A stretch of 64,000 nt of DNA from a virus. The position numbers and the translations under genes were made by a program. The notes beneath the pieces are model-generated. The model had not been told where the DNA came from. It did no database searches and saw only the letters and a program-made list of their open reading frames with translations. Below, in pieces: positions 12,252 through 41,238 of this stretch. Numbering within the stretch: position 1 is the stretch's first letter; each line of letters begins with the position of its first letter. Location: positions 32,001 through 96,000 of IMG/VR virus record IMGVR_UViG_3300033802_000463. One strand, given 5' to 3'.

Positions 12252-12287
12252 ACTTGCCTATATTGGCAATATTAACATAAATTTATT

Positions 12288-21945: not shown

Positions 21946-24900
21946 TCATGTCGGGTAACTGATGTGAATGTGGTTGTAATGGTCGCTTCGGACAATGAAG
22001 GTCTTTCCTGGATATTTAGCTCGCATCCTGTTCAGGATATCGCTGTCGGCATGAATGATGCCGTCAAATCCAATCTGAGCTGCCAGGTCAATAATGGTTT
22101 CTACCATTTCTCGATCCGCGTTATTGACAAATCGAAGCTTTCCGGCAATGACTTGCATATCAGGCGTATCGATATCAAAGGCAAATCCCGTGTTATGCCA
22201 ACTCAACGAGCTGCCATCTTGTCTTCGATAGGTGGAAGTGATGAGCAGCTTCTTTCCTGTTCTTGCTGTGTACGCCAATCCCAGCTGCTGCAGCAAATCC
22301 GCTGTCGCTTTACGAATCAGCGGCGCCTGCATAATGGGTTGATAGAAGTTCACACTGGTTACAGTATTGGTGCTGACAAGTACGCTGCTTGCTTGCTGAG
22401 GTGTGAGCAAATATTTTCGTTTCCCTGCTTCGCTCCGATCCGTCGGCACTTCCGAATTGGTGATTACTTTCGAAACAGAAGGCATTTTGAAGTTCGGATC
22501 GTGCTTTGCGATTTGAGCCATGATGTTGGCGATTTTCTTATGCCATTGCTTGTCGCTTGCATACTTGACATTCATGCCGACAAGTGTTGGGCCATTGTAA
22601 TATTTTCCGCCAGGCGTCAAATAATTTTCTTTGATTTTGTTCGCTGCATAGTAGATGCAATCTTGAACGGAAGCAAATCGATACGCGCTGTTATACGGAT
22701 CGCGATCGTAGGCTCCATAACCAAACAGGTTATTTTTATCCTTGAAGATCCGCGAAGTCCCCCATCCTGTTTCTAACGCCGCATGAGCAGCCAAGTACAG
22801 ACCATTCATGACATTCTCTCCGTTTGCACTTCCTTCAATCATCAACGGAGATGGCGGAGATGGGATAGAAATTTCAACTTGCTTAAAGTATTTTCCAAGG
22901 CCGGCAAGCCCAGTTCCCTGGAATGCAGCATCAATCGCTTCCGCAGAAATGCCGCTAGGTTTGTTCAAATCCATATTTTCAAAGCTATTTCCAACAACGC
23001 CATACCCACTGCCATTATTTATGGCCTCTGTCAACTCTTCACCGGTGATCAATGAGCGGCGTTCTTCGTATATGGGTTTTCGTGCGGCATCCTTTTCCTG
23101 ACGTTCCAGATGTCCCTTCCATTGCCTTCGAGCTTCTTCAACTTCGAAATTGTAGATTCGAATTGCTTCAGGATCTGGGATCACCTTGTAGCGATGCTTT
23201 TCAAAAAAGCTTGCAGCCAGTTTTGAAAAGTCAATGGGACTGTTGTTATTGTTTTGCATGAGCATATCACCTTCATTGGTGATCGGCGCATATTGCGTCG
23301 TATCCGCGCCCAGGAAGCCGGCAAGAATAGCTCCCACTACATTGTTGGTTAATACGCGCTGCCAGAAGTCTGGTGAGTCACCAATGACAGATCCCATATG
23401 TCCATTGATCCCTGCAGAAAACTCCATTCCATCTTTTCGAAGAACGGCGATGATGCAAGCCTTTCTTGTAAACAAGAACCGCTCAATTAATTCGCTAATC
23501 GAAGCGCAGACGATTTCAACAATCGCAGTTTCGATCAGGAAGGCGGCAATACCTACGGGTCCGCCAAATATCGCCAGAGCACCGCTTGCGGCTTGCCAAC
23601 CGCGTCTTCCCCATTTTGCTGCCTTGGCAGTAACTTTGAAGCCGCGGTTCATGAAATTGCTCGCGCCAACCTTTAACTTTGCCAACTTGGCAGGGTCAAT
23701 TTTATGATAACCCATAAAACGTTTATCGTACAAAGTTTTATCCAAGTTATCAAATAGGGCGATGATATCTTTTTCTGAGAAATTCTCGATTTTAGAAGCA
23801 ATATCCTTCAATATTCCGCTTTTTGTCCAGCGATTCTTCATTTCGTTCGTAACAGGATCGTAACGCCTTACTTCTTTGGATATTGGGTCGATTTCAATGC
23901 GTCCGCCCTTTGTATCGATGGTTCGCGTTTGTTTGAGCTCTTTTCCGGCGCTTTGACTCCATTCTTTGATAATGGAACCGACCTTTGTGGCATTAAACTT
24001 GCCTAACAGAGCATCATATCTGCGTTTAACGACCGCCCAAATCGCATTCATGATTGGGAATGCGCCTTTGTATCCCATGTTTCGCAGCACTGCGCGCAGT
24101 GTATATGACAAGATCATGTATGTGGCTACATGCATCAAGCTTTGAAGCATGGTCATGACGTGACGATCGTAATTAACCACTACGGCGTCCGGCTTAATCA
24201 TCGTAATGAATCCTGTTTCAAAGTTGAACAAATGATTGACTTCCCGCACTTCAATCGGACCATTCATGTTATGGAATGTGTCTTGGAAGTAGCAAATATC
24301 GTGCGGCTTCACAGAAGGATCGCCGGTAACGGTCAGATAGCCGTCATACATTTGTTTTACAAAATCTCTGAGCCCCGCAGCAGCAATTTTAATGGCAACT
24401 TTCTCATCGAAGTACCACTTTGGAAGCTTGTTTAAGAAATGACCGACAAGCGGAATATGCTCGATCAATCGGATGCCTTGTGCGTTTAGCTGCGTATCGA
24501 TCTGCACAGTTCGCTGAAGCTCCGGCCAAATATTCGTATCCACGTAAATGCCTTCTGTTGTATCCAGATTGCCTTCGTTGCTGTAAACACCAACGGCTAC
24601 CGTGTACATGTTTTCAGTTGTGGCAATGATTTGATTCTCCAAAATCGATGTCCAGCTATCATAAATATGATACTGTCTAAACGGTTTGGAGAGCGTTACA
24701 AAATCGTAATGAGATGATTTTGCATCTTGCAAGCCATTGCCTCCGATAGCTTGGTATCCGTATGCAAGTGGAAAGTATGGCTTGCCCATAAATATGGTGT
24801 TTCGGAAATCGAAAGGATGAACAGCCAAAATAAAGTCTTCGCCGATCGCCGCACATACGCTGAGGACATCCCATACGGTTTTATCATACAGATTGATATT

Positions 24901-27900
24901 GATTCCTACTTCGTCGCCTTCCCCAATGCCAAAGAAGTTGCCAAGCTTGTTCCAAAAGCTGTTGGCTTCATCTCGAAGCAAGCCGGTTGTCTTATAAATG
25001 TTTTGTGTGATTTCATTTCGCTGCCGGTCTTCAAAAGCACCATTGAAATTGATCGCATTATGATTGATTGGCGGGCCCGGCATGCCAAAATGCATGATCC
25101 CCAAAGAGTGCTGCTGATAATCGGCATTGCTCCATGCTTTGGAGAGATCGGACCAGAAACCGGTATGATCAGTCAGGATCTCATCAATGATTTCCGTTGG
25201 TTCTTTTTTGCTGAAGACCCATCCGCGCGTAGTATCGCCAGGCGATGCTTTTAACTTGTTGGTAAGCTCAATACCGTCATCCTGACAGATGACCGTAATT
25301 GTTTCTCCGTTATTCTGCAGCTGCGTAATGACGCCATTCATGATGGTTGGCATATTGGCCGCGTTTGAACCATATCCCATCCGGAAGTGAACTCTGGCGC
25401 CAGTGCGCAAATAAATCGAATTGTACCAGTTCGGATTGCGTCCGCGGCGCGATTTCTCAATCTCACGAGCCAGAGATGAAGGATTGAACATTAATTGTAC
25501 AATGTCCCATCCGTTGGTATTTGTAAGATCCATGCTTTTCATAGCATCATCCAAGTTGCCGAATACATTGGACATCTCCAATACAAGGGTGCTCGAAGCC
25601 GTCTTTCTGCTGTTTGTATACATAATGTCGGTGACCGCCCGATAATTAAAGTAATTATCGGACATCTTTGTGGCCGCCACATACTGCCCTTCGTCAACAA
25701 ACAGAAGCAAGAAAGTCGGAAACGCCCGCACAAGTCGGCCGCGGCGGTCATACTTGCGCATATCATGGAAGCTTTCCCGAAAGATCTTGTCAAAATCTCG
25801 GTATTCCTTCTCTGTCAGCTGCGAGTCCGTGAAAGTCGGCGTATCACTGTTCATGTTGATCGTCTTGTAATCCGGAACTGGAAGCTTGCTGTATTTTTGC
25901 GCAATCTGCACGTCCGTCCACTTGTCGATCTTATCAACCTCATTGAGCACGGATTTGATGATCTGCGAAACAAGATACGGCATCTTCTTGTTGCTGTTTA
26001 AGAGCAAATTGTATTCCCGCTCATAACCGAGGTACATCGAGATTGCGCCGACCCAAATGGCTTTTTGTTTTTGCTCCGGCTTTAGATCAAAAGCAGTAAA
26101 TACGTAATCATTGACCAGGTTTGCGCCTTGTACGATATCAAGATAATGCTGCATCAACTTGCAGCCTTGTTCCACATTGTATTCGATGTTTCGCGCCAGG
26201 CTATTCGGATCACCCATGAGCGGACTTACGCGCATCACGCCGATATAGGATGCATTCCGAAGGAAGTTGGCATCCCTAAAGTAACGCATGTCTTGCATCT
26301 GCATGACAGGTATTCCAATCTCTGTAACTTCGATTCCTCCAAGCTCTTTGTTGGCGCCCGGACCCACTTCATAAAATTGACGGAGCTTGGGGTCAAAAGC
26401 TCTGGCCAATGCTAACATGAGAGCTTGATCCACTCTGGGAGCCGTAAGATCCGATTGTTCATTGGACACATCTTGTGCTTTTTTCCGGATCAAGGTCTCC
26501 ATGTCCTGAACAGACAAGTTGGCCACATCGACCGATTGAGGAACCGGTGTGGCGACAACAGGATTCTGTTGCTGCTGTTTGATTTCTTCGATATTATCGA
26601 GAACTTGCTGATCCGGATTTATGGATCCCGGAATAACCGTAGCCTTTCCATTCATCGAATCGCGCCACTCTGATGGAAGGGTAGAGTTTTCGGACAGATA
26701 GCGATCAAGCTCACTGCCAAAGTCTATCGGATCATCGTAGATGAGGAAAAAGTCCGGATCCACATATTCTCCATCATTCAAGTTTGGAATCTCAAACCCC
26801 GCTTCCCTGACTTCTTTATAAGTAGGAAGCTCTAAATCCGGATAGAGTTCAATCATAGACATAAGCTCTTTGATTTTTGATTCATAGATGGCGCGCTTTT
26901 GCCAATCCTGGTCGCTCATGAAATCAGCCAAACCAGCAAAGAAATCGGCATTGCGAATGAAAGGCTTGTCAAAAATATCCCACCATTGGTAGTTGCTGAG
27001 CTCAAACGGAATCGTCTTGTTGTTGGCCTTATCATAAAGCATTTGCACTTCTTCAAGGCGCTTGGCGGCTCGGTTAAATGCAGAGAGCGTCAGCGTGATT
27101 TCATGTACGCCTGGCATCCCTTCTACAGTCGTGGAAACCATATCTTCTACGACTACATACGTGCAGCCGAATAAACGTGTCAATTGATGATCGAACTGGA
27201 TGAATCCATTGGACAAGACTTGATGATACTCCCGATTCAGATATGTAGAGCGGCGAACCAAATTCTCCAGACTGGCAAGAGCTTCCGGATCATCCGTTCT
27301 GAAGCGGGCAATATACACTGCATCTTGGGAGCCCAAATATTGATGTGTTGGCGACTCATGGGCCTGCAGCTGGACTGACGTGATAATGTTTTGGTAGCCG
27401 ACGCTCAACTCTTCGAGTACAAGCCCCGGGATATCCCAGTTATCCATCCGGAACTCATAAGTTTGAAGCAGTTTGTAAATATCATCGGCGTACATGCTGT
27501 CGATTTCTTCATCGAACATAATTTGCTTCCATTCGTCAATCCAACCGGTTGGGATGCCGTCTTCATCTTTGCCGGCAGGACGCGGCACCGGAAAGATGCC
27601 GCCTATCCACATCCAGTCTTCTTCATCAAGTCCTGGCTTATCCTTTTTGTCATTGATCCATTTTTTAATGAGCGTGTTGCGCTTCTCGCGCCACTTCTTC
27701 ATCATTTGCAAATCTTCTTCGGCCACAATGCGAAACATGAAATCGTTATGCAGTTCAATTTGCAGCGGCTCGTAGAACAAGATGTTGCGTTTGGGATTTG
27801 GCTCCAGGCTGCGGCGATAATACCATCGGAACAATGGCCAGTTAAACATCTCCTCGAAGCTTCGCTCTGATTGATCAAAAATGTAAGAGAAGGGATTAAA

Positions 27901-28308
27901 AGCATACATCTGCAGCTGAACCATAAGGCAGTGCGGGAATCCTTTAATCGTCTGCACAGAGATGCCGGCGATCGTTACCGCCTCAATTTGATACGTATCA
28001 TTGAGCAGTTTATTGGATATCGGCAGAAATGGACATTTTCGCACTTGTGCGAGCAATGGCCGCAATTCATTATTAATGCTTTGCATGTTTGGGAAAAACA
28101 AATTGAGCTCAATAATATGATCAAAATATCCGGACGATTTCACCATGCTGCTTCGGCTGCGCAGCATGTTGATTTTTTCATTTTTCATCCGTTTGGTTAC
28201 GGTTATCGCGGTTGGCGGTATATAGAATTGAGAGTCTCCAATTCGCAAATGATGATCACGCAACGCCCCGTACAGGGCGTCGCGATCATCATATCCAAGA
28301 GTAGGCAT
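21946..28308 (-). CDS. Baseplate hub / tail-associated peptidoglycan hydrolase (2120 aa) with GH73 glucosaminidase and M15-type peptidase domains
   Basis: Hub-like [12 protein letters not shown]...NGVIT and [17 protein letters not shown]73 motifs [30 protein letters not shown]15 motifs ITSTYR..SWH..G.AFDI..HIHIS. Confidence 0.85.
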
Positions 28309-28320
28309 GGATTATCACTC

Positions 28321-31300
28321 CTAAGAGTATTGCTCAACTTTATCCCGATACCAAATCCGACTCAAATGGGCTGTATTGTCTGAATGATTCACGTTCATTT
28401 GCACTTTGCCGTTGTACCCGGATTGCTGCAGGGCTTGACCGATCATCGGACCAAAATTTTGAGACCCTTTTCCTTGAGCCGAAATGGTGATATTCGCTCC
28501 CGAAAATCCAGCGTCAATCGGCGTAATTGCAGGCATTGGCGTTCCGCCATACATCATCGATGCGTGCGCACGCGCCTGCTCTGCAGATTGGTAATCTGAA
28601 TTGTAAGGCATTACAGGCTCACTATCGTTAAGAGTATTGTACCCTATAATACCTGCAAGCGCTAGACCTCCAATAAGAGCAGCTTTCTTATTCCTTGGAC
28701 CATTTGGACCATTGAAGAATGCATCGAGTGATTGCGAGACTTTATTGTATGTTTTTGGTCCAAGCATTCCACCTGTTCCATCTTCAATGATTTCAGCAAT
28801 GGTGCCGGCCGGTCCCTCCAGCCGCTTGGCCATCATGGAATCCAATCCAGGTTCAAGCGGACTGACCTTTCGATATTCCGGCGTAATATCCATGGGCTCC
28901 GGATATTGAATATCAAGTCCCGCTTCTTCTCGAAGCAGTCGCTGCAAAAGCCCCATGTATTGATTGGTGCCTGTCATATCTGGATTCTTACCCATGATGG
29001 TATCGACAATCTTGGTTAATCCATGATCTGATAGCCTCATGCCGCGGCTTGTTCCCGCGCGAAGCTCGACATTCTTGAAGTCTTCCTTCATGCGCTTCAT
29101 GGCTTCTTGAAGATGGCCGGCAGCCATTTCCAAGTCATATTCTTTGGCAAAACGACCTTCAAAAAGCCGTTTGTCTATGTCGATTGCTTCCTTCCAGTTC
29201 CCATAACGAATAGCTTCCAGCAATTCCGAAGCACCGGATCGTGCCATGAGGACTTGACCAGTACCGTGTTTCGAGGAAATCGTGAGTTTCTGTTCTAAGC
29301 CCTCCCCGAGATTAAAGATCGCTTGTCTTGCCGCCTCATTGTCCGCATAGTAGTGGTTGGCAATTTGACGCATCATGTAGTTCAAGTCTGATGCTTGCCC
29401 AACCAACTCTTTACCGGATTTCGCAAGCATTTCATCAATTTGATTTGGAGCAATGGCCTCAATTCTTCCGGATTCGCCGGCTAAATCACGCAATCCGAAT
29501 CTGCGCTCTTTTTCTCCATCCACTGCTTTTTTCATGAATCCTTCGATATAATCAGATGGATATTCTTCGCTATTTGCCAGCGCGCGCTGATATGCCGCTT
29601 CGTGCCGTTGGCGCCGAGCATATTCTTCTGCTTTATATCGTTGCTCCAATTCTTCTTGAACTTTTTCATCATGTATCGCAAGCAGCTGATTGTAGTCGCC
29701 ATCCGAGTCAGCTGCAAGGAATTTGGCCAGAAGCGAAGTTACATGATGTTGCCCGGTGGCTACATTCTCGCTTACTTTCAGCCTGGCTACTTGTACAGCC
29801 TTATCTGTGAAAGTCGGATATCGCACATCGACCACATAGAAATCTTTTCCATTCACAATGTGATCGTAGACGCCAAGAGCCCTTGCTTCATCCGGAGAGA
29901 TAAAGACATGTTCGCCTCCGAGTTGACTTGATATCGATGTCGGCAAAACCTTCGTGAGACCCGATGAGGAGAATGGCATATTCGTCTTAAATACACTTTC
30001 TCCTGTTTGTCCTTTGGAAGCTGTCACATGCTTTACCAAACCTTCGACATAGCTGTTTACCGATCTCTGAAGCCTTTCCATGGCTCGCTGACGTTCGATA
30101 TCTGTGCCGGCCTTTCCAACCTCTGCTGCACGCCGATAAATATCAGCAATATGTTGCTGCATTTCACGCTTCCAGATCTCGTTCCCCTTTCCCTCATTTT
30201 TCATGAAGGGAACAAAGATGCGATTGATCTGTCTTCCATCCACATTGACCGTTAGCGGCGTTTTTTGACCACTGATTTCAGCATGCGGCAATTCCAGCCA
30301 GTATCCATGGTAATCGTTATCCTCGACCAGGCTTCGCAGATAGTCGTCATCCAGGATGGTGCCATAGATGGTCGCTCGGTTTGTATCTGTGGTCGGAAGC
30401 GGCAAGAGATCTCCCAATCGCACAGTCCGTTTTTCAAAATCCGGATCGACAGCTTGTTCTCCGTAGACAAGTCCGCGCAATGCATGCACCATGCTGATTG
30501 CTTCCTGGGCCCGGCCGGTTTCTCTGGCAGAAGTCTTCATGTGATTCCAGATATAATCAAATGTGTGATTATACCCTTTTTGTTTGAGCATTCCAAGTTC
30601 TCGGAACCCATACTTGACACCTTTTACTTCACCTTCGTTATACACGATGTTGACCATTCTGCCATCATCACTAATATCATAATTCAAGATGGCTTTTCGT
30701 TTTCCATCAACCATGGTGGAGTAGGTTTGAACTTGTGCTGCACGCATTGCCTGAATGCCCCATACAACGCCCTGTTCGGATGTCTCTGAAATGCCGAGCT
30801 GTTCAAACAGCTTGTAGAAATTCTCGACATTGATGGACCTGTATTTGTTTACCTTTGTGACATCAAGAAGTTCAACAGTTCCATCGGCGTTGATTGTGGC
30901 CTTCAAACCCACTCTTCCTCTGTTGATCATGGCCACGGCTCTTTTCTTGTCTTCTTCGCTCATCTGATCGACATAATATTTCAGCTTGTTTGCTTGCGCG
31001 CGCAAAGCGCCGCCAAAGTCTCTGTGTTTGGCAATATCAGGATTGTAAACCGCCCCGATGCCCTCTACACCAGTGAGCTCCTCCAAAAAGCGCTGGCCAT
31101 AGCCGAACTCTCCGTTCAATTGCCCGCCTCCGATGGTTGTTTTCTCAATATCGAAGGTGAATTTATTGGCCTGCTCTTTGTATTCAATGGCAAATGCATT
31201 GTCGCTCATTTCTGATGCGATTCGTCCGACGTGCCTCTGATCGTAGAACACATCTTCCCGGCGGCCGTCAATAATCCGGTATCCAAGTCGCTCACCCGGC

Positions 31301-34300
31301 AAAATGTCAATATTTGTCCGGAGATTTCCATCCGCGTCGATGAATTTTTCATCCCAATAAATCTCGTCTCCTCGGTAAATTTTGTAGTTCTTCATCTTGA
31401 AGCGATTGACGAGATCCCTGTTCATCAGCGCTTGCTGCTCATAAACATTGGGATAGCGGACCGGATTGATATTGCCGCTGACATCAATAATGCCTTCGGA
31501 TCGAAGAATGCGGCGTCCTTCTTCTGTTTCCATCATTCGCTGAATGGCCTCATCGACTTGAGCCTGACTCATGAGAGCCGTTTTAACATGCACTTCCCTC
31601 TTATACGGAAGCACTTGATCCAGTCGATCTTGTAATTTGGTTTTCACCATTGGCTCGGTACTGATCCAGGCTGACGACTCGTTCAGTATATTTTCGAGAT
31701 CACGATCGATCGCATAAGAGTTCATAATCTGAACGGCATTATCCCGGCCCATATTGGTGAAATGACCATATGGGATCAAATCCCGGGCATCCATTCGGCT
31801 GGCACCGCCATCAATTACCACATCACTTTTGACTGCAGAATAAAACAGATTACCGATGCCGTTTGCTTTCGCCCACTGAGGCAGATCTTTACGAATCATG
31901 AACCGCGCTTCATCGCTTAAATCTTCGAGTGACACGAATGGATGAAGTTTCTTTTTATCCGCATTCAAAATAACCTCTTTGTTATAGAAGTCATCATCGG
32001 AAATAAGGCCGCGTTCATAGTAATCTTGAATCATTGCGGAGTGGGCATATACACGAGATTGCTTGGCCAAATCGGATTCGTTGCGCCGCACTTTCAAGTC
32101 ATCATCCAAGTCCCGCTTCACTCCAGACAAGACGGTAACTTGATTGCGAACCAATCGCCTGGCCAGTTTATTTGCTTCTTCAAATTCTCCTTTTTGAATC
32201 GCCTCAACCATATTTCGATAATTCCATTGGTCGTTTTCAGCCATGAGTTTGGGATCTGTCAGCATCATCGCCAATTTCTCGACCGAAGAAATCTGACGAT
32301 TCTCTCTATTGATGCGAATCACATCAGTTACCGCATTAAGATGCTGGTTTCCATACACAAGCGTTCCTTGCCGGCTGACAAGCGGCACGACCATTTCAAA
32401 CGCTTTCGGATGGGCCTCGTTTGATCCTGAAATCAGATGACGCATGACACTCATGCTGTCCTCTTTGTTGAACATGGTAATGATAGCTTGCGTCCCTTCC
32501 CTGTTCATGGAAAGAACCGTCTGCATGCCTGGATTGATTTGGTTCAGATGACTGATGATTTGCTCCACGGCTTTACGGTTATTTGGATTCAATCCTGTAA
32601 TCGGATGTCTGCGATCCAACTGATTGAAGATTTCCCCGATGTCGCCTTGAGACAAATCGGGCCTTACAACAAATCCATTATCAATCAAATATCCTTGCAT
32701 GCCGCGCGCTTGCCCAATCACCGACTGAATCATTTGATGACCGGCTTGTTTGGATATTCGCTCTACGGATTCTCGCTTGCGAAGCGACTGTTCCGTGATG
32801 TTTTGCATCATCAAACGCTGATTTTCCATGAGATCAAGCGCCAGGATTTGAATGGATTGCGGGATGGTCAGATTTCGCCCATGATAATCCCGGATGAGAT
32901 TTTGCATGTATTCGTCTTCGATGATGCCTGAATCGTTTAGCGAAGCAAGCAAGGTCTTGAACCGTTCTTCCCGTACCACCAATTTTTCGGACTCGGACAA
33001 ATCAGCAGTATCGCTATTTACATATGAGCTTAATTGATTGATAGTATAATTCACATTTTGCAAGGTTACATTTCTACTCTTCCCTGTGATGCGGTCGCGG
33101 AATGTAAAACCGCGCTGCTCATAAGGAAGCGGTTCCCGAATCTCTTTATGATCTCCCGCAATTTCTTTTACTTGCTCGTGAAACAAAGCCCAGGCAACAC
33201 TCTTTTTCTGCTCATCCAATCCGCTTTTGTCGATGGCGTCGATTGCACTTTGATACAGCTGCCGTTCTGACATCAATCTTGGCAGCATGCGCCAAAATGC
33301 TCTTTCCTCTGCTTCGTTGTATACCCATGTTTTTGATACCGAATCCCAAAGCGAGTTAAAGTCCATCAGCTCTCTCATTTCGTCCTTGTTGATCCGTTTC
33401 TTGAGCAACCTGCCAATAATTTTTTCACGGGCCTGCTCATATTTCTCTGGAGTCCAATGACGGATAAATTGTCCGTTCTTGATTGTCAGCTCGTCAAGAC
33501 GCCGGGAGGCTTCAGCCTCAATGGCGCTCCACCGGCCGGCAGCAAATTTTTCATAGACCGCTGCATTTGCATACATGCGTCGAGCAGCCCGAAATCCTTT
33601 GGTCGCACTGTCATCCAAACTAAACAAGTTCTCATAGCGGCGACGTGCCAAATCGGATTCTCGACGATACTCAATCATTTTCCGCATTTTCTTGCTCAGG
33701 TTACTCACAGGCATGAAACTTCGGTGATAGAAATCCGCGATTTCATATGCTGCATTTTCGCCTTCACGCACCACAAAAGAACGAAGCGTTGGATTATCCG
33801 CGTTGACAAACTCGATGGCCCATCTTGGAATCCCGCCGGACGATAGGTCACGAATGCCGGCTACGCGATAAAACGATTCCGCGTTGATGACATTCTGATT
33901 AAATCCCGGTCGGAAGATTCGATATGTCCCATCTTCGGCCAACTCCGCCATGTAATCCAAATGACTGCCTTTATAGTTGCTGACTGCCCGGGTGGCAAAC
34001 AACAGATCATTTGTCGTTAGCGGTTGATTGGAGTACATCAAGTAAGGAAACCGTTGTCCTAATTTTCTCGCCTTGTACCGCTCGTTCACTTCCATGTGCG
34101 GCAGCATGCGGTCAAAATATTCCCAGGTATTTGCCACGACACCGCCAACCCCATGCATGCCTGTATCCGCTGAAGCCGCGTGTGCATCTCCCGTATCCAA
34201 TCCGAGCGTTCTGCGCCACTCTTGCAGCGTCCATGGACCTTCGACAAATGGCATGTCTTTTGTCCGGCCATAGATATCATGCAAATCTATAGGATTGCGG

Positions 34301-35298
34301 ATGATGGATTGCATGACAGCTTGATAATCCATATGATATTTTGGACCTTGAATCTTGAGACCAACACGATCCGCCCATCGCTGCAGCGTCGGCAAGTCAA
34401 AACGATCACCGTTCATGGTGACAAAATAACTGTTGCGATGCCTGGAAAGAAATTCATTGTATTCATTAATGACTTCTTCATATCCAGCGCCATTCGCAAT
34501 CAAGTTTTGCAGACCGCTGCGCATATGGCGAACAAACCGGTTTACATCTTGACTCAGAACGATTTGCTGAATTTCCTTGCCATGCAACACGCTGTGAATC
34601 AAGCTGTTGTGTCTGACCTCTTTTCCAAAGGATGCGGCCGTATATCCCTCCTCCGCGATCGAGGAATAACGAATCAAGTCCACCAGCGTTCGCTGTTGGC
34701 TAGGATTCAACTCATGAAAACGGCCGGTACGATACATGTAAATCAGATGATTCAATTCCCGCTGCATGATTTCATCCGGCCTAATCAATCGATTAAAACG
34801 AAGCCGTTTTGATTCTCCAATAACTTTGCCGCTTCGCATATTGATGGCATTTGCGGATATTTCTGACACAAAAAATTTATCGGATGCCGTATCTCCAAGT
34901 GTTTCAATATCCAATCCAAAGAATCGTGCATTTTTTAGCGTTCTTGTTCGCTCTGCAAAATGACGAAAAGTTTCGATATGACGTTGTGCATCGAATCGAT
35001 AATCACTGTAAGGATCAGCATTGCTTACAGGATTCAAAAAACTCCAAATGGTGGTGCCGCCCATATTAATGACGCCATTCTTCAGCGGCAGCGCAGGTAT
35101 TTTATTGATCGCATCGTTCAATTCAACAAGTGAAGGATTAATCTCATTGCTTCGTGTTGTCTTTGGTTTGTTAAACGAACCGTAAGCGGAGAGCACCACC
35201 CGTTTATGGCGATCGGCCGGCACATATTGCAAGCCGGCCTCGATCCCTTTGTTCACATTCTGAAATAACCTGTCATAATTCGTTTCATTTGTCGCCAT
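28321..35298 (-). CDS. Giant protein with N-terminal DEDDh exonuclease and fused beta/beta'-like two-barrel RNA polymerase motifs (putative virion RNA polymerase)
   Basis: Exonuclease motifs LDIET, NGDRFD, HAASAD. RNAP-like motifs NVYEQQALMN, KFTFDIEK, GVKYGFRE, IADIYRR, LQRSVN, RYPT, ADSDGD. Start at MATNET after GGAGGTG. Confidence 0.72.
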   Translation of the reverse strand: MATNETNYDRLFQNVNKGIEAGLQYVPADRHKRVVLSAYGSFNKPKTTRSNEINPSLVELNDAINKIPALPLKNGVINMGGTTIWSFLNPVSNADPYSDYRFDAQRHIETFRHFAERTRTLKNARFFGLDIETLGDTASDKFFVSEISANAINMRSGKVIGESKRLRFNRLIRPDEIMQRELNHLIYMYRTGRFHELNPSQQRTLVDLIRYSSIAEEGYTAASFGKEVRHNSLIHSVLHGKEIQQIVLSQDVNRFVRHMRSGLQNLIANGAGYEEVINEYNEFLSRHRNSYFVTMNGDRFDLPTLQRWADRVGLKIQGPKYHMDYQAVMQSIIRNPIDLHDIYGRTKDMPFVEGPWTLQEWRRTLGLDTGDAHAASADTGMHGVGGVVANTWEYFDRMLPHMEVNERYKARKLGQRFPYLMYSNQPLTTNDLLFATRAVSNYKGSHLDYMAELAEDGTYRIFRPGFNQNVINAESFYRVAGIRDLSSGGIPRWAIEFVNADNPTLRSFVVREGENAAYEIADFYHRSFMPVSNLSKKMRKMIEYRRESDLARRRYENLFSLDDSATKGFRAARRMYANAAVYEKFAAGRWSAIEAEASRRLDELTIKNGQFIRHWTPEKYEQAREKIIGRLLKKRINKDEMRELMDFNSLWDSVSKTWVYNEAEERAFWRMLPRLMSERQLYQSAIDAIDKSGLDEQKKSVAWALFHEQVKEIAGDHKEIREPLPYEQRGFTFRDRITGKSRNVTLQNVNYTINQLSSYVNSDTADLSESEKLVVREERFKTLLASLNDSGIIEDEYMQNLIRDYHGRNLTIPQSIQILALDLMENQRLMMQNITEQSLRKRESVERISKQAGHQMIQSVIGQARGMQGYLIDNGFVVRPDLSQGDIGEIFNQLDRRHPITGLNPNNRKAVEQIISHLNQINPGMQTVLSMNREGTQAIITMFNKEDSMSVMRHLISGSNEAHPKAFEMVVPLVSRQGTLVYGNQHLNAVTDVIRINRENRQISSVEKLAMMLTDPKLMAENDQWNYRNMVEAIQKGEFEEANKLARRLVRNQVTVLSGVKRDLDDDLKVRRNESDLAKQSRVYAHSAMIQDYYERGLISDDDFYNKEVILNADKKKLHPFVSLEDLSDEARFMIRKDLPQWAKANGIGNLFYSAVKSDVVIDGGASRMDARDLIPYGHFTNMGRDNAVQIMNSYAIDRDLENILNESSAWISTEPMVKTKLQDRLDQVLPYKREVHVKTALMSQAQVDEAIQRMMETEEGRRILRSEGIIDVSGNINPVRYPNVYEQQALMNRDLVNRFKMKNYKIYRGDEIYWDEKFIDADGNLRTNIDILPGERLGYRIIDGRREDVFYDQRHVGRIASEMSDNAFAIEYKEQANKFTFDIEKTTIGGGQLNGEFGYGQRFLEELTGVEGIGAVYNPDIAKHRDFGGALRAQANKLKYYVDQMSEEDKKRAVAMINRGRVGLKATINADGTVELLDVTKVNKYRSINVENFYKLFEQLGISETSEQGVVWGIQAMRAAQVQTYSTMVDGKRKAILNYDISDDGRMVNIVYNEGEVKGVKYGFRELGMLKQKGYNHTFDYIWNHMKTSARETGRAQEAISMVHALRGLVYGEQAVDPDFEKRTVRLGDLLPLPTTDTNRATIYGTILDDDYLRSLVEDNDYHGYWLELPHAEISGQKTPLTVNVDGRQINRIFVPFMKNEGKGNEIWKREMQQHIADIYRRAAEVGKAGTDIERQRAMERLQRSVNSYVEGLVKHVTASKGQTGESVFKTNMPFSSSGLTKVLPTSISSQLGGEHVFISPDEARALGVYDHIVNGKDFYVVDVRYPTFTDKAVQVARLKVSENVATGQHHVTSLLAKFLAADSDGDYNQLLAIHDEKVQEELEQRYKAEEYARRQRHEAAYQRALANSEEYPSDYIEGFMKKAVDGEKERRFGLRDLAGESGRIEAIAPNQIDEMLAKSGKELVGQASDLNYMMRQIANHYYADNEAARQAIFNLGEGLEQKLTISSKHGTGQVLMARSGASELLEAIRYGNWKEAIDIDKRLFEGRFAKEYDLEMAAGHLQEAMKRMKEDFKNVELRAGTSRGMRLSDHGLTKIVDTIMGKNPDMTGTNQYMGLLQRLLREEAGLDIQYPEPMDITPEYRKVSPLEPGLDSMMAKRLEGPAGTIAEIIEDGTGGMLGPKTYNKVSQSLDAFFNGPNGPRNKKAALIGGLALAGIIGYNTLNDSEPVMPYNSDYQSAEQARAHASMMYGGTPMPAITPIDAGFSGANITISAQGKGSQNFGPMIGQALQQSGYNGKVQMNVNHSDNTAHLSRIWYRDKVEQYS

Positions 35299-35313
35299 GT
35301 TTTGCACCTCCAC

Positions 35314-38300
35314 TTACATCAATGATGCCATGTTGTATCTTAAATAATTGTCGATCTCATCGCTGCGATCTTGCTGGTATTGGATCCCAATCCGTGTTGT
35401 GGATCCGGTATTGGGAGTCACCATGACATTGACATTTTTTAACCCTTGTCCTTCCAACACTTCTTGGATAGTGCGGCGCACTCTTTTGTAGCTGAATCCT
35501 TCGTTCTGATACAGATCATTTCCATAAGGCGTTAGATCTGGCGCCAGACGGGAGGCTTCAACATCATCCGGCCAAAAGTTAAAGTCGGAGAGATCCAGTT
35601 GCTGATTTTGAACCACTTTCAATTTGATGCTCTCCAAGTCAAATTCTGGCCGCCATCCTTCCCAATCTGCATCTGGAAGCACGTACTTTTGGAAGTATTC
35701 TTCAAGCGGCGGAACTTCTTCATCTCCATAGCCCCACAATGCTTTGTATATCCGCCTTTGATTTCTCGGAACAAGTTCCAGAATCCTCTCCCGGTCCCGC
35801 TCCGGCGCATTTACAAATTCGTCGAAAAACCACCGATCTTTCGTTGGAAAGGCGCGGGCAACCTTCATGCGATCGTCATACGGATCGATAGCATATAAGG
35901 TTTCTTCACTTTTCTCCTTATATTGTAACGCTTGACGTACAATATCGGGAAGTATTAATTCATCCCAACGGCTCTCTTGAATTTGAGCAAGCTCCTGATT
36001 GATTTCTCTTCGGCGTTCCTCCCAACCTTTGGGCTGAGTAATATACAGCCGCCGCTTTTCTTGCTCCAACTCATATCGGCGCTGCTTAACTTCAGCTTCT
36101 TTTTGTTCAATGTCTGCGAGTAGTGCTTCAACATCATAACCTTGTGCAGCGGCTTCTCGCTTAGCAGCCTCATACAAGCCAGTATATTTCATATACTTCA
36201 AGATGTCGAAGTATTCATTGATGTCATGCTCGATCCGTCTCCGTTTCGGGATCCATACTTCTCCATCATGAGTATATTCGTAGTGCCTTGCATATGCATG
36301 GCCGAGACCGCCAATCAGTGCTCCAACGATGGCTCCCGCGCTAGTGCGTCTTTTACCGCCTCCGCCCAGCACGGCCATAATCACCCCGCCGATTAAACCG
36401 CCGCGCATCATCGACTCCAGCAGATCGTGACGAAACGCAGCCTGGAAGCTTGGGATCAAGTAGTCACTTGTCAGGAAGTTGCGCCAAGTTGCCCAATCCT
36501 TTCCGTAAATCTGGTCTCGCTCGTATTCTTCAAGCGCTGTGCGCACTTGCAGAAATTTGGTATTTAGCGCCGATTCAAAATGCGCGATGGATTCCCATCT
36601 TGCTCCTTCAGCGATCTCATCAGTTGTAAAGCGCGCGTGAACCGCCGGCGCCGAGAAATCCGTCAGATTCTCTTTCATCAGGCCGCGGCGCAGGATTTCC
36701 TGGTTGATGTTTTTCAAGCCATCAAAGACAACGGCGCGCATCGTCTGATACGTATCATCTGATATTCGCCGGCTTTGATCCGCATCAACACCGATTGTGA
36801 TTTTATCCCCTACACTGATATAAGATTGCAAAACACCTTCCGCATTCGGCCGATAATCTACGCCGGCAAGCCGAATTGGCGTATCCCCAAATTCCTTCGT
36901 GAGAAACGTGTAATCATCCAGGAACTTGGTCACAGTTACTTGATATTTTTCAATATCTGCATATTTGAATCGGTAATCCACAAATTCATATTTTTGTTTT
37001 CGCCTCGCAACTTGCCGTTTAATCTCGGCGATTTGTTTACGAAGTTCCGGATCCGTAACGTTGGCCACCACATAATCGCGCCAAAATTTATATTCATCAC
37101 TCCATGGCGCCACATCAGCCAGAATTTTGAACTTGTCGAATGCACCGTAACGTCCGGTTTCATCCGGATGCAGCGTATTCAGTTTTTCATATGCTTCACC
37201 GGGCAAGCGATATTCTCCATGCTCAATTTTCGTGTAGGGATCGCCTACCTGGAAATTGATAAAGTAATTTGCTCCGGGGAGCCAATCTGGCATTGTGTTG
37301 CGAACCGGATTATAAGTATCCAGCTGCCCGTCATCGCGTCGAATGAAACGCCGGCCAATTTCGGAGACTGGTCCTCCGAGCGAACCAAGATTCATTCCCC
37401 AAAAACGGTTTGACAGGTTATTGGCTGCATCCGCTTTTTGGATGACCATTTCGCCTGCATAGGTGTTGTCTCCGACGACCTCCTCAAACATCCACTTGTA
37501 AACCCCAAGCGGTTCTGTCCAGTTTTGCGCAGTTTCTTGGATTCGCCAATTGAGACTTGTCGGATCATTCAATTCGCGCAGTTTTCGATTACGCACTTCG
37601 TTTTTGTACGCAAACTCCTCGGTTCTAAGTGCGCGCGGACTTGTATCCAATATGGGCTCGATTGGAGCAGCCATTGCAAACAGCTGATCAATGGAATAGT
37701 CTTCTTTTGCAATGCTGGACGGCACATAGATTGCTTGTCCGCTGGCGATTTCTTGCGCCACATAGGCACCTGTCGGATTTCCTTGGTCGTCTAATTCATT
37801 GGCGACAAAATATCGGATACCTTGCTCTTGACCGATTGTTTCCTCAGCTCCAGTCAAACCCGCAGCATAAGAGGATCCGTAATCGGTTGGTCCCGCATAA
37901 ACGATATGTTCAATTCGGCCGGCTGGAGATATGCGAGTCACAACCGGTGCCGTCGGTCGATCACCAAGTTCCTGATTTTCAGCATCAACCAAGACGGGAT
38001 CGCCCCAATACTCCGGATGCATATAGCGCGATGGCTTGATCAGCTGTCCGATCGTCGCATTCCCAATATCACCAAAAAACATCGTGTTCGGGTTAAACAG
38101 AGAACCGGTAATCAAGTAAGGGCGATCATAGTAGTGTTTTTGTTCCCAGTAATATTCATTTCCGTTCAGGACTCGTTTGAAGATCCCAAGCGGGTTTTCA
38201 AAGGTCGGCAAAATGTTCATTTCACCGTACCGTTCTTCGCCCGTCAGGTTTGTATTGGAATGTTCCCAATCACTCATCGCCAAACGCCATGCATTCGGTC

Positions 38301-41214
38301 TGAACTCTGTAATGCGATCGCCGCGATAAGCGGACTTGGAGCCCCACAGCCACCACCGGCTCTTACGCACCTCATCCACGCCATTCATCAGATAATCCGC
38401 GTACTCTTCAGCCGTGTACGTATCCTTCTCATCGATCGGCACAGTATTGCCCGTCAGAATATTGCCAATTGCTTCGATGGGGCTTCCGGATGTAAAGACA
38501 GCACCAAGAACATGCCCAGGTCCAAATTCACCAATCCCGGGCAAATACCATTCAGGCATCGCATCAAAATGCTCAATGCCCGGGTAAAGCATGCGTCTTC
38601 GAGCAAGGTCATCATTGACACCCATAGCATCTCTTGCCATGGCTGCCTCCAGATTTTCTCTTGCCCGCATGTTCTGCCATCTTGCTGTGATTCCCATGCC
38701 GGTATGTTTCTGCAGCTCATAATCGGCATATTGATAAGCTTCATACCCCAGATAAATTGGCAAAAATCGCTTCAAGAACAGAGATGATACGGTTTTCAGC
38801 GGACTGGACAGTGAATCCTGCGAAAAGCCAAGCCCCCAATCGCCGAGCGCATCCTGCAGACGGAACCATGGATACTGGCCGCCAAAAATCGAAAGTGTTG
38901 TGAAATCCTCCATATTTCGCCGGCCTGTGGTCCAGCTGAGCTGCTTCGCAATATCTTTGATGGTGTTGATGCCATCCCATCCGTTAAAGGCCTTGTTGAC
39001 ATATAAAAACTCGTCATTCACCAGGTTCGGCGGCTTCTGTCCTGTGAATTTTTCATAAATCGGATTCGTGCGTCGTACCGCTCTTAATACATCTTCACGA
39101 AATTCTTGAGAAAATGTGCCTTGTCCTAAAATCAAATGATTGACACTATCAACGGCAAAGGCTGGATTATCGTAAAACTGTGAGCTGGCTCGACGCAGCA
39201 GATGATGATTGAGCAGGAAATTTGCGTTTTGCGCATCGGCCGACAAAATGTCTCCGCTCCGATACAAGTCATTGAAGATCTTTCTGAGATTTAGATTGGG
39301 ATGACTTGCGTTATTCTCCGTTATCTGACGAATCAGCTCAAGACTAACTTCTCTCCGGATCCGATCGTGTCCGCTTTGAATCCGGGTATACTCATCAACA
39401 AGTAAGTTGCTCTCGCCAATCGGCCGCTTCGCCGCAAGGAACGAGTCCGGATCACGGCTGTACTTGCGCCAGATTTGGCGAATGACTTCTCCGGATTGAC
39501 TTTCCTGATAATTTTCTCCGAAGAATCGAAACAGCTTCATGATATGTTCTTCATTGGAGAAATTAATGCCGTTCTTCTCTAAGAATTGCTGAATATGCCC
39601 CGGCAGATACGTGCGAATCCTATTTAGCACACGCGGCGACAGCTCAACACTGTATTTATCAAAATAGCCGCGAAGCGCGCGCAAGCTCTCCTCATCAACA
39701 CCGCGATGCATGGCAGTGGTTACGATATTGCGCTCCCATTCTGGGTTCCAAATCTTTGTGATTTGGCTAAGCAGCTTGGGGCCAATCGCATCCTTGTCTT
39801 GCCGACCCAAATCGAATAACTTTTTGAATCGGCCGCGCGTATCTTCTTCGATATCCATAATGCCGCCTGTGCTGCGGTGAATTTTTGCGATCGTACCGAA
39901 GCGAGAGGATGTTGCATACATCTTTCGATGAGGATTAAGAATCTCCAAGGCTCGGGTTGGATCATTGACGGCCGCGGTATCCATCAATCTCACAAAGTCT
40001 CCGTTGATGAATACCAGATCCTCGTCCAGCGTACTGTTGATGTCTTTTCCCATTTGTGCAAGAAGGCTTTGATGGCGCGCTCCCATCGATACAACACGAA
40101 AGCTTCCGACTTCCCTTGCTTCCCGGATATTGATTTGATCCCGCAGGTGAAGCAGTCCGCCGGGCACCGTATTAGCTGCCTTTTTCTTTAGACCGAACAT
40201 CATCTCGTCGAATACTTTGTAATCCGTATAATCAATGATGTTTCCTGCGCTGTCGGTTTTGACATACAAATTGGCATCGAAGATTTGTTTGCGAAAATCA
40301 TCATGCCGGCGAATCATGTCATTAAGTTGGGCGACGGAATCCGCATCCAGCTGTATTCTTCCCGAGCTGTGCATAGCAAGAACATCTTCAACGGTTGCTT
40401 GCCGCTGTCCGCGAATATACCGGCTGAATGCAAATTCCCGCTTTACGACACCTTCTGCATTTGCTGCTGCCATTGTTTTAAGTTTGTCTTGCATGACATT
40501 AACGTATTGGCGAAACTCATCGCTGGTTCGGTAATTTACATTTCGCAATGCGTTCCGTGCATCCAATGCATGATCGATCAGGCTTTGTTCAATGCCCTGC
40601 TGATGCAAGAGTCCGCGAAGCTGATCGTCAGTATAATGACTCAAAAATCCAGGATCTTCCCGCCAACCAACCTTCATTGCCTCACGAACACGCTGCATGG
40701 GCGCGTTGCCAGCGCGCCGTTCCAGCTCCAGCATTACATCGCGGAAGCGAAGCCGATTTTCAATGCGGTAAGGGATATCATTTTGCAGCCGCTGATTGAC
40801 TTGCCGAATATACCGCAGCATATCGTATTCATTTTCCGGATCCCGCGCAGTAGCAAAATCGCTAAATTTGGACCTACGTTCATCCACGATGCGCCGGCGC
40901 CGCTCTGCAAAGTCACGCATCATTCTATCCAGGCGAGAAACGCTCATATCTTGACGCAACGCTCCCTGATGATCGAGCGTTTCTCGCAGGGCTAGAAGCG
41001 ACCCCTTTCCTTCAATCTCAAGAAATCGAGCAAACCGTTTCAGTGCTCCGATTCGATGCAGGACCGCTAATGCACCGACGCCAATGGCGGCATTAACAAG
41101 CAATGAACGAGCAGGCGATTGATCATCTTCGTCACTTGTCAAGAAGCGCGTAAGAGGCCGTTCATCTGTGCCATAATACTGCGCATACCTGGATTGTCCT
41201 GTTTCATCCGCCAT
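35314..41214 (-). CDS. Tape-measure-like giant tail protein (~1966 aa) with degenerate thermonuclease-like domain
   Basis: Directly follows the tail chaperones. Helical, with Gly/Ala-rich hydrophobic segments. SNase-like segment VTVTKFLDDYTF...IRLAGVD...NINQEILRRGL. Confidence 0.65.
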   Translation of the reverse strand: MADETGQSRYAQYYGTDERPLTRFLTSDEDDQSPARSLLVNAAIGVGALAVLHRIGALKRFARFLEIEGKGSLLALRETLDHQGALRQDMSVSRLDRMMRDFAERRRRIVDERRSKFSDFATARDPENEYDMLRYIRQVNQRLQNDIPYRIENRLRFRDVMLELERRAGNAPMQRVREAMKVGWREDPGFLSHYTDDQLRGLLHQQGIEQSLIDHALDARNALRNVNYRTSDEFRQYVNVMQDKLKTMAAANAEGVVKREFAFSRYIRGQRQATVEDVLAMHSSGRIQLDADSVAQLNDMIRRHDDFRKQIFDANLYVKTDSAGNIIDYTDYKVFDEMMFGLKKKAANTVPGGLLHLRDQINIREAREVGSFRVVSMGARHQSLLAQMGKDINSTLDEDLVFINGDFVRLMDTAAVNDPTRALEILNPHRKMYATSSRFGTIAKIHRSTGGIMDIEEDTRGRFKKLFDLGRQDKDAIGPKLLSQITKIWNPEWERNIVTTAMHRGVDEESLRALRGYFDKYSVELSPRVLNRIRTYLPGHIQQFLEKNGINFSNEEHIMKLFRFFGENYQESQSGEVIRQIWRKYSRDPDSFLAAKRPIGESNLLVDEYTRIQSGHDRIRREVSLELIRQITENNASHPNLNLRKIFNDLYRSGDILSADAQNANFLLNHHLLRRASSQFYDNPAFAVDSVNHLILGQGTFSQEFREDVLRAVRRTNPIYEKFTGQKPPNLVNDEFLYVNKAFNGWDGINTIKDIAKQLSWTTGRRNMEDFTTLSIFGGQYPWFRLQDALGDWGLGFSQDSLSSPLKTVSSLFLKRFLPIYLGYEAYQYADYELQKHTGMGITARWQNMRARENLEAAMARDAMGVNDDLARRRMLYPGIEHFDAMPEWYLPGIGEFGPGHVLGAVFTSGSPIEAIGNILTGNTVPIDEKDTYTAEEYADYLMNGVDEVRKSRWWLWGSKSAYRGDRITEFRPNAWRLAMSDWEHSNTNLTGEERYGEMNILPTFENPLGIFKRVLNGNEYYWEQKHYYDRPYLITGSLFNPNTMFFGDIGNATIGQLIKPSRYMHPEYWGDPVLVDAENQELGDRPTAPVVTRISPAGRIEHIVYAGPTDYGSSYAAGLTGAEETIGQEQGIRYFVANELDDQGNPTGAYVAQEIASGQAIYVPSSIAKEDYSIDQLFAMAAPIEPILDTSPRALRTEEFAYKNEVRNRKLRELNDPTSLNWRIQETAQNWTEPLGVYKWMFEEVVGDNTYAGEMVIQKADAANNLSNRFWGMNLGSLGGPVSEIGRRFIRRDDGQLDTYNPVRNTMPDWLPGANYFINFQVGDPYTKIEHGEYRLPGEAYEKLNTLHPDETGRYGAFDKFKILADVAPWSDEYKFWRDYVVANVTDPELRKQIAEIKRQVARRKQKYEFVDYRFKYADIEKYQVTVTKFLDDYTFLTKEFGDTPIRLAGVDYRPNAEGVLQSYISVGDKITIGVDADQSRRISDDTYQTMRAVVFDGLKNINQEILRRGLMKENLTDFSAPAVHARFTTDEIAEGARWESIAHFESALNTKFLQVRTALEEYERDQIYGKDWATWRNFLTSDYLIPSFQAAFRHDLLESMMRGGLIGGVIMAVLGGGGKRRTSAGAIVGALIGGLGHAYARHYEYTHDGEVWIPKRRRIEHDINEYFDILKYMKYTGLYEAAKREAAAQGYDVEALLADIEQKEAEVKQRRYELEQEKRRLYITQPKGWEERRREINQELAQIQESRWDELILPDIVRQALQYKEKSEETLYAIDPYDDRMKVARAFPTKDRWFFDEFVNAPERDRERILELVPRNQRRIYKALWGYGDEEVPPLEEYFQKYVLPDADWEGWRPEFDLESIKLKVVQNQQLDLSDFNFWPDDVEASRLAPDLTPYGNDLYQNEGFSYKRVRRTIQEVLEGQGLKNVNVMVTPNTGSTTRIGIQYQQDRSDEIDNYLRYNMASLM

Positions 41215-41238
41215 AACATTCACCTGCTTTTCTTTGCA

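Follow-up and report, generated by a model that had tools for sequence, protein, structure and literature searches.

A predicted DEDDh exonuclease fused to a two-barrel RNA polymerase core in a giant protein whose gene lies in the tape-measure position in a large phage

Giant RNA polymerases (RNAPs) carried in virions are already known from phage N4 and from the crAss-like phages (gp66), and a two-barrel RNAP fused to a tape measure is known from Thermus phage P23-45 (gp96). Fusions of DEDDh exonuclease domains to helicases, Cas2 and DNA polymerases are likewise known. As far as the available part of its published account goes, gp96 carries a two-barrel RNAP with a DxDGD motif in a giant protein at the tape-measure position, it has been proposed to carry out pre-early transcription while the DNA enters, and the P23-45 genome holds a second, non-virion two-barrel RNAP (PMC10770324; Chaban et al. 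2024). The gp66 protein of crAss-like phage phi14:2 (structure 6VR4) is described, in the available part of its preprint, as a giant single-chain two-barrel RNAP of the virion that is ejected for the early genes (10.1101/2020.03.07.982082). Here we analysed a window of 64,000 nucleotides (positions 32,001 to 96,000 of IMG/VR virus record IMGVR_UViG_3300033802_000463; coordinates below are those of the window unless referred to the genome or to another locus), in which a minus-strand open reading frame (ORF) encodes a giant protein, P0001. As judged from structure models, P0001 very probably joins an intact DEDDh exonuclease (residues ~117-405) and a beta-to-beta' fused two-barrel RNAP core (residues ~1150-2110) in one polypeptide. 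A literature search whose coverage did not extend to the RNAP catalogue of Iyer and Aravind (2012) yielded no report in which a DEDDh exonuclease is joined to a two-barrel RNAP. The word 'exonuclease' occurs neither in the main text and seven supplementary files of the gp96 paper (PMC10770324) nor in the available part of the gp66 preprint (10.1101/2020.03.07.982082).

The ORF of P0001 is listed from a GTG at 35313, giving 2330 amino acids. Its true start is likely not this GTG but the ATG at 35296-35298 (M6), with a product of 2325 amino acids; GGAGGTG precedes this ATG, and M6 is invariant in 20 aligned family members. The parts of the protein are as follows.

28321-35313, minus strand: exonuclease-RNAP fusion protein P0001 (ORF translation; homologues of 2172-2729 amino acids)
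34099-34965, minus strand: DEDDh 3'-5' exonuclease domain, residues ~117-405 (structure model and structure matches)
34903-34911, minus strand: Exo I, D135-I-E137 within FGLDIETLG (in-frame translation; invariant in alignments)
34444-34728, minus strand: helical insertion between Exo I and Exo II, residues ~196-290, boundaries approximate (secondary structure of the model)
34396-34413, minus strand: Exo II, N301-GDRF-D306 (translation; in a profile search, aligned with the Exo II motif of family-B DNA polymerases)
34165-34182, minus strand: Exo III, H378-AASA-D383, of the H-x4-D or 'h' type and not Y-x3-D (translation; alignments)
31864-34026, minus strand: conserved middle region, residues 430-1150 (kept in relatives)
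30514-31866, minus strand: RNAP beta/Rpb2-like module, residues 1150-1600, in which the first double-psi beta-barrel is located (structure model, Foldseek, structure alignment)
31141-31164, minus strand: K1384-FTFDIE-K1391, candidate active-site lysine pair of the beta-like barrel (invariant in the 20-sequence alignment)
28984-30468, minus strand: RNAP beta'/Rpb1-like module, residues 1616-2110 (structure alignment)
29815-29823, minus strand: R1831-Y-P1833, R-x-P signature of the metal-binding barrel (invariant in the alignment)
29695-29709, minus strand: D1869-S-D-G-D1873, catalytic aspartate triad (invariant in the 20-sequence alignment)
28324-29016, minus strand: C-terminal tail, residues 2100-2330 (translation, alignment)

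An earlier reading of the window, made by a model from its letters (hereafter the sequence-only reading), had proposed three exonuclease motifs and a fusion of the exonuclease to the N-terminus of an RNAP-like giant protein. Retranslation of the ORF and of its sub-ranges places all three motifs in frame exactly where they had been located. The fusion holds with a correction: the domain lies near the N-terminus, as claimed, but not at its very start, with about 115 conserved residues ahead of it. An antisense ORF of 210 amino acids (34180-34812, plus strand) sits inside the exonuclease-coding region and is probably spurious, since the conserved minus-strand frame accounts for the sequence.

The exonuclease part was modelled with AlphaFold (AF2) over residues 90-440 from an alignment of 30 sequences, with a mean predicted local distance difference test score (pLDDT) of 90.8 and a predicted template modelling score (pTM) of 0.89. 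Structure alignment of this model with E. coli Pol III epsilon (2ido_C) gives Z 13.9 and a root-mean-square deviation of 2.4 A over 166 of 175 residues. Epsilon (1j53_A, Z 13.7) also ranked first in an unbiased alignment of the model to 48,161 PDB chains, where the best 50 chains are all DEDD-fold exonuclease-type domains and DEDDh enzymes outrank the polymerase DEDDy ones; the RNA-acting DEDDh enzymes 3'hExo, ERI2 and RNase T gave Z 13.4, 12.9 and 11.1 in the same search. The top Foldseek matches in PDB were a DnaQ domain, TREX2, TREX1, the PolC exonuclease and RNase T. In the model the acidic residues lie in an RNase H-like DEDDh fold, in agreement with the DEDDh signature that the sequence-only reading had recognised. 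P0001 shares this fold and the D-E-D-H-D signature with DnaQ/epsilon, TREX1 and TREX2, RNase T, 3'hExo, ExoI, the N-terminal domain of DinG and Cas2-DEDDh, whereas its sequence identity to DnaQ-type DEDDh enzymes is just 12-21%. The wording of its Exo I and Exo II motifs (FDIET, NGxxFDxP) is nearer to family-B polymerase exonucleases than to DnaQ-type enzymes, and 41 of the 42 PDB sequences reached by a profile of the domain are family-B DNA polymerase exonucleases (best E 0.004).

P0001 further differs from DnaQ-type DEDDh enzymes by its helical insertion, which separates Exo I from Exo II. It is confidently modelled and carries a conserved QRTLVDLxRYS motif together with an invariant H235, the residues conserved in the 20-sequence alignment being R208, D212, L213, R215, Y216, S217 and H235. 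D135 and D306 are 171 residues apart in P0001, against 91 residues between D12 and D103 of E. coli epsilon. Because of this insertion the domain gives a weak Pfam signal in P0001 itself, where the best match of the whole protein is PF16473 at E 0.15; PHROGs returned phrog_255 'exonuclease' at E 0.002. Curated Pfam cut-offs are passed by two relatives: homologue P0008 matches PF00929 (RNase_T) at 26.8 bits for a cut-off of 24, and homologue P0007 matches PF13482 at 23.0 bits for a cut-off of 22.

Conservation was assessed at two depths. In the 20 aligned members, which share 25-59% identity, D135, E137, N301, F305, D306, H378 and D383 are invariant. In a broader set of 61 giants (the protein of the window and 60 others), all five catalytic residues (D, E, D, H, D) are aligned in 49, the other 12 being gapped at Exo I or Exo III; the H and D of Exo III are aligned in 51 and fall in unaligned sequence in the remaining 10. 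At aligned columns no substituted catalytic residue was found in the 61 giants, so that the conservation anticipated for the domain is borne out and the motifs are no coincidence. These counts also bear on whether the exonuclease might be a relic, that is, a fold kept for folding, packaging or DNA-end binding without catalysis. Inactive exonuclease-like folds do exist, and two of them, ESRP1 and Exuperantia, are among the fold matches. Relic domains normally lose their catalytic residues, however, and here they are never replaced where aligned, down to ~25% identity, which makes a non-catalytic role highly improbable.

The second part of the fusion, residues 1150-2110, was modelled by AF2 from an alignment of 30 sequences (pLDDT 87.8, pTM 0.86). 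Foldseek returned at least 500 matches for this model at E <= 0.001; the top ones are all second-largest RNAP subunits of the Rpb2 type (E 4e-8), plus one bacterial beta'. Residues 1-450 of the model align with the C-terminal half of beta/Rpb2 with Z 15.6-16.7, and in an unbiased search the best chains for the beta-like module came from the non-virion RNAPs (nvRNAPs) of AR9 (7s00_C, Z 15.7, 349 residues aligned) and phiKZ (7ogp_C, Z 15.5, 345 residues aligned). The beta'-like module (model residues 467-961) aligns with human Pol I A190 (7ob9_A) at Z 11.3 over 381 residues, with archaeal RpoA' (2pmz_A) at Z 10.8 and with Mycobacterium tuberculosis beta' (6edt_D) at Z 9.8. The single-chain enzymes align to the polymerase model with lower Z: 10.1 for QDE-1, 8.5 for P74-26 gp62, 7.3 for P23-45 gp96 and 6.7 for crAss gp66.

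The signature residues of the two-barrel enzymes are found in the same modules. R1831-Y-P1833 stands 38 residues ahead of D1869, the first residue of the aspartate triad; the available part of PMC2919709 lists signature residues for all two-barrel enzymes, Rpb1 R446/P448 among them. An exact D.DGD motif is present in 55 of the 61 giants, and a profile of the RNAP region matches 56, in each of which the three aspartates are aligned. K1384 and K1391 lie in beta-strands of the modelled beta-like module, and most of the 61 giants show a 'KK'; from their sequence they are candidate counterparts of beta K1065/K1073 (Rpb2 K979/K987). The RNAP-subunit folds, together with the R-x-P and DxDGD motifs and the candidate lysine pair, point to a core built as a beta-then-beta' fusion of the multisubunit kind. 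The RNAP-like two-barrel part supposed by the sequence-only reading is thus recovered at the level of the modelled fold, with invariant RxP and DxDGD motifs. The relationship goes undetected in sequence searches: the RNAP-region profile found no match among PDB sequences, phmmer with the whole of P0001 against PDB gave a single chance match (a carbohydrate kinase, E 0.06), and tblastn with the whole protein found no match in 50,697 phage records.

In the unbiased search the beta-like subunits of the AR9 and phiKZ nvRNAPs rank first for the beta-like module of P0001. Those enzymes, however, consist of several subunits, with no beta' fusion, no location in the tail module and no DEDDh domain. 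Whereas gp96 belongs to a siphovirus and has its RNAP at the N-terminus, P0001 is encoded by a contractile-tailed phage and has its core at ~1150-2110; the gp96 structures 8h2n and 8h2m align weakly with it (Z 7.3 and 6.8), and searches of PDB sequences with the whole of P0001 and with the RNAP-region profile found no similarity to gp96. The P0001 core is nearer to multisubunit RNAPs than gp96 is. We therefore propose that P0001 acts in the manner of gp96, without assigning it to the gp96 family, there being no sequence match and a weak Z. The core is also structurally distant from that of gp66 (Z 6.7), a protein of a podovirus-like crassvirus.

Since an exonuclease beside a polymerase is the usual design of a replicase, a proofreading DNA polymerase with a PolD-like two-barrel core has to be considered. 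According to the available parts of PMC6355029 and PMC4996933, archaeal PolD (DP1-DP2) pairs a two-barrel DNA polymerase core with a 3'-5' exonuclease partner, the same logic as in P0001. The exonuclease of PolD is a phosphoesterase; it differs in fold from that of P0001 and has a subunit to itself, and PolD makes DNA. ORF scans found no DNA polymerase in the 136,063-bp contig of which the window is a part. The contig lacks a terminal repeat and probably represents an incomplete genome, about two thirds of the whole, as relatives rated 97-100% complete measure 191-206 kb; a Pol III alpha-type polymerase (~1170 amino acids) is encoded in four of five related records, including all three that are at least 90% complete. 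The P0001 gene, moreover, lies in the tail module and not in the replication module. The best 50 matches of the polymerase model are RNA polymerase subunits and unrelated barrel domains, with no PolD chain among those 50, an absence from a list and not an exclusion. Taken with these points, DNA synthesis by P0001 is very improbable.

The sequence-only reading had raised the question of whether the fusion persists in homologues. The window and five loci were used to build an exonuclease-domain profile, which was run against 1.84 billion representative proteins with a cut-off of E <= 0.001. It reached 66 proteins, of which 52 are giants of 1708-2729 amino acids with the domain near the N-terminus, so that the fusion is indeed retained. 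The other 14 are short and mostly fragments. Ten of them were looked up: seven come from contigs of 1.3-6.2 kb; the label 'partial' is attached to two, one belonging to these seven and the other on a contig of 198,868 bp; one, on an 84.7-kb contig, is unexplained. A locust repeat protein, also among the ten, was taken as spurious. In these 1.84 billion representatives the profile reached no ordinary DnaQ, epsilon or RNase T, and the exonuclease subtype turned up neither on its own nor with another fusion partner; judged by sequence, it seems confined to the polymerase giants. It is this restriction to a single giant architecture that argues for a role linked to the polymerase.

Pairwise divergence of the exonuclease part and of the RNAP part across the 61 giants is correlated (r = 0.83 over 1686 pairs); the pairs being non-independent, the coefficient indicates co-inheritance and similar constraint and carries no probability. 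Mean pairwise identity in these giants is 0.247 for the exonuclease part and 0.235 for the RNAP part. Family members bear database names such as 'hypothetical', 'DNA polymerase III epsilon subunit-like' and 'exonuclease domain-containing'; the polymerase part of the proteins goes unrecognised in all the names seen. Strains of Oceanobacillus profundus and Paenibacillus are among the carriers of relatives.

The P0001 gene lies in the tail module, with sheath/tube genes on one side and baseplate genes on the other. The phage is a large myovirus of the Bacillus group, similar to 0305phi8-36, with a contractile tail, and the P0001 ORF abuts two other giant ORFs of the same strand in a block flanked by virion genes.

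19799-20650: baseplate wedge gene, flanking the block of giants
21946-28308, minus strand: downstream giant of 2120 amino acids, homologue of gp147 (baseplate hub) of 0305phi8-36 (tblastn; phrog_20474; annotation)
35314-41223, minus strand: upstream giant of 1969 amino acids, homologue of gp145 of 0305phi8-36 (tblastn, 31% identity over 65% of the query, E 3e-98)
44717-47515: tail sheath gene, flanking the block of giants
59150-60235: major head gene, flanking the block of giants

The 2120-amino acid giant ends in a glucosaminidase domain (PF01832, E 4e-15). The synteny of the three giants is retained in all five related loci, and 0305phi8-36 has the same three-giant block between tail and baseplate genes, with gp145 and gp147 homologous to the neighbours of P0001. 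Between them lies gp146, annotated as 'hypothetical tape measure protein', and the notes of the 0305phi8-36 record state that gp145 and gp146 were seen in virions by mass spectrometry. The P0001 gene occupies the tape-measure slot of a 0305phi8-36-like phage. By analogy with P23-45 gp96, P0001 is probably carried in the virion and would enter the cell with the DNA or just ahead of it to transcribe the first genes.

Two regions of P0001 are conserved outside the assigned domains. The middle region (residues 430-1150) found no match in Pfam, PDB sequences or the ESM Atlas. The C-terminal tail contains a hydrophobic stretch rich in Gly, Ala and Leu (residues 2209-2228; 28630-28689), has a conserved end, NHSDNTxxLxRIWYRDKV, and may be a virion-incorporation or membrane module. 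By eye, the C-terminal ends of the 2330- and 1969-amino acid giants look alike (V-x-V-x-V...R-I-x-Y...D; 28324-28700 and 35314-35450, minus strand) and may hold a common packaging or tail-incorporation signal. In a search of five proteins, CDS0031 of Moorella phage MTATph1 (L012:14187-15128) matches the C-terminal tail alone (E 7e-9), and CDS0027 of the same phage gives a weak match to the whole-protein profile (E 4.9e-07); exonuclease and DxDGD motifs are absent from both. MTATph1 is a relative in culture; the middle gene of its three-giant block is broken up by a transposase gene, is annotated as several coding sequences (L012:7772-15128) and, apart from these matches, shows no similarity to P0001 in the pieces compared.

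If P0001 is indeed delivered at the very start of infection, its exonuclease could be an independent injected nuclease that rides on an ejected protein for a purpose other than transcription. Such a nuclease could blunt or protect the genome ends against AddAB-type nucleases of the host, help end joining or recombination, or destroy host or defence nucleic acids such as the small DNAs or RNAs of defence systems. DEDDh domains are found on many unrelated partners, for instance Staphylococcus aureus DinG (Z 13.3-13.4), Cas2-DEDDh (Z 11.6) and Cap18 (Z 12.6), and the conserved insertion could be a specific binding surface. Against this stands the finding that all 52 long matches carry the exonuclease in the same giant architecture, and we regard a purpose detached from transcription as distinctly unlikely.

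The phage encodes a further polymerase. An ORF of 1143 amino acids (genome 111,109-114,540, plus strand) matches the Pfam family RdRP (PF05183, E 4e-9) and is accordingly a YonO-like single-chain two-barrel RNAP; homologues with 36-38% identity are present in four of five related records, again including the three that are at least 90% complete. From these sequences the phage has two two-barrel polymerases, as does P23-45. A YonO-like RNAP is also reported from 0305phi8-36 in the available part of PMC7824862. The gene of this second polymerase could be among the first that an injected P0001 transcribes.

For the exonuclease itself we tentatively favour, while rating it somewhat below an even chance, an action on DNA: resection of the 3'-ended strand at the entering end of the genome, which would provide P0001 with a single-stranded template. 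Transcript trimming, processing of the genome ends and production of single-stranded template had all been suggested in the sequence-only reading, and each is compatible with the present findings. The enzyme would resect this strand at the genome end or at nicks, the complementary strand would be left single-stranded for a sigma-less polymerase to load and start, possibly at folded hairpin promoters, and the recessed 3' end would later be filled in by the Pol III alpha-type replicase of the phage. A DNA substrate is weakly suggested by the nearest sequence relatives of the motifs, which are DNA-polymerase exonucleases, and, again weakly, by the best structural match, the DNA proofreader epsilon. 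The rationale for a single-stranded template comes from two unrelated enzymes, crAss gp66 and the N4 virion RNAP (vRNAP), both of which need single-stranded or denatured template in vitro: in the available parts of their descriptions, N4 vRNAP requires single-stranded hairpin promoters, and gp66 is efficient on single-stranded or denatured DNA and inefficient on duplex DNA (10.1101/2020.03.07.982082).

Candidate hairpins are present in the genome. Eight covarying hairpins with a 5-bp stem and an invariant TGAC loop, followed by nnTTC, lie on the plus strand at genome 115,764-132,950, each of them intergenic and 33-209 nt upstream of a plus-strand ORF with a Shine-Dalgarno sequence. In total 10 such sites were found in the genome against 0.88 expected from shuffled sequences. 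The TGAC hairpins may act as promoters for one or other RNAP of the phage, or they may be RNA elements. The genes behind them point to the right end of the contig, where 3'-5' resection would spare their template strand.

Several observations weigh against resection by a virion-borne P0001. The fold does not indicate DNA, since the RNA-acting DEDDh enzymes fit nearly as well as epsilon (Z 13.4-11.1 versus 13.7), and the polymerase core is similar to RNAPs of the multisubunit type, which open duplex DNA unaided, and much less like gp66 (Z 6.7). Between exonuclease and polymerase lie ~700 residues with no assigned fold. The TGAC hairpins may serve the YonO-like polymerase or be RNA elements, and as an exact pattern, which gave two stray matches in the five related records, they are not conserved there. 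With no terminal repeat and a contig that is probably incomplete, the true genome ends may differ from those of the contig. As for delivery, gp146 of 0305phi8-36, unlike P0001, has neither exonuclease nor DxDGD motifs and matches none of three P0001-family profiles, so that position by itself carries the virion argument. Exonuclease activity, polymerase activity and presence in the virion are all predictions drawn from sequence, models and position.

The main alternative is transcript editing, in which an exoribonuclease would trim the 3' end of the RNA made by the fused polymerase, removing misincorporated nucleotides or rescuing backtracked or arrested complexes. It would substitute for factors of the Gre/TFIIS type, which a polymerase so divergent, and injected, is unable to recruit. 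A DEDDh exonuclease working with an RNA polymerase has a precedent in the ExoN of coronavirus nsp14; the pair nsp12-nsp14, a right-hand polymerase and a DEDDh exonuclease, follows the same logic without being a DNA-dependent RNAP. The fusion is strictly in cis, the two parts co-diverge, the catalytic residues of the exonuclease are as invariant as the polymerase triad, and 3'hExo, ERI2 and RNase T are among the best fold matches. Multisubunit-type cores, on the other side, normally cleave backtracked RNA in their own active site; in sequence the motifs are nearest to the exonucleases of DNA polymerases, the two domains are ~750 residues apart, and selection for fidelity would seem weak in so brief a phase of pre-early transcription. 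The available part of PMC5467207 describes the phage RNAP YonO as being without RNA cleavage and proofreading, which speaks for this reading. Overall we hold transcript editing to be possible, if on the unlikely side, and the more specific proposal of a 3'-5' exoribonuclease dedicated to proofreading or freeing the jammed RNA of the polymerase on the same chain to be doubtful. If true, this would be the first DNA-dependent RNAP with a separate proofreading exonuclease domain, and the transcriptional counterpart of replicase proofreading and of the coronavirus ExoN.

Other features of the phage were observed alongside the giants. A diversity-generating retroelement occupies 10982-13328 on the minus strand and is composed of the following parts.

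10982-11986, minus strand: reverse transcriptase ORF (phrog_1423, E 6e-126)
12119-12248, minus strand: template repeat
12298-12427, minus strand: variable repeat, at the 3' end of the tail-protein ORF 12288-13328

All 20 differences between the template and variable repeats are at template adenines. A fourth giant ORF of 2851 amino acids (3-5825, minus strand, continuing to genome 29,270) carries PA14, Ig-like and invasin-like domains; it forms the distal end of the tail-fibre block and probably encodes a fibre that binds the host. The region of the terminase large subunit (genome 99,046-101,748, minus strand) holds an ORF of 323 amino acids for the ATPase half, then a LAGLIDADG endonuclease ORF (233 amino acids) and an ORF of 279 amino acids that found no match in the libraries, an arrangement which suggests that the terminase gene is split by a homing endonuclease or by an intein or intron. 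Finally, a ParM/Alp7-like actin (L009:10477-11676, minus strand), a GGDEF diguanylate cyclase (L010:13924-14556, plus strand) and an NrdI flavodoxin (L007:326-682, minus strand) are encoded.

Virion-delivered RNAPs allow several groups of phages to start infection without the host enzyme, and the means by which they open a template or come by one is still a question for N4, the crAss-like phages and P23-45. The occurrence, in at least 60 sequence clusters, of a catalytically complete and invariant exonuclease in one chain with the polymerase points to a new solution, in which the enzyme would either make its own single-stranded template or edit its own transcript. The predicted beta-beta' fusion stands nearer to the multisubunit enzymes of cells and jumbo phages than to the known single-chain phage RNAPs, and an RNAP in the tape-measure slot of a contractile-tailed phage would extend the P23-45 precedent beyond the siphoviruses.

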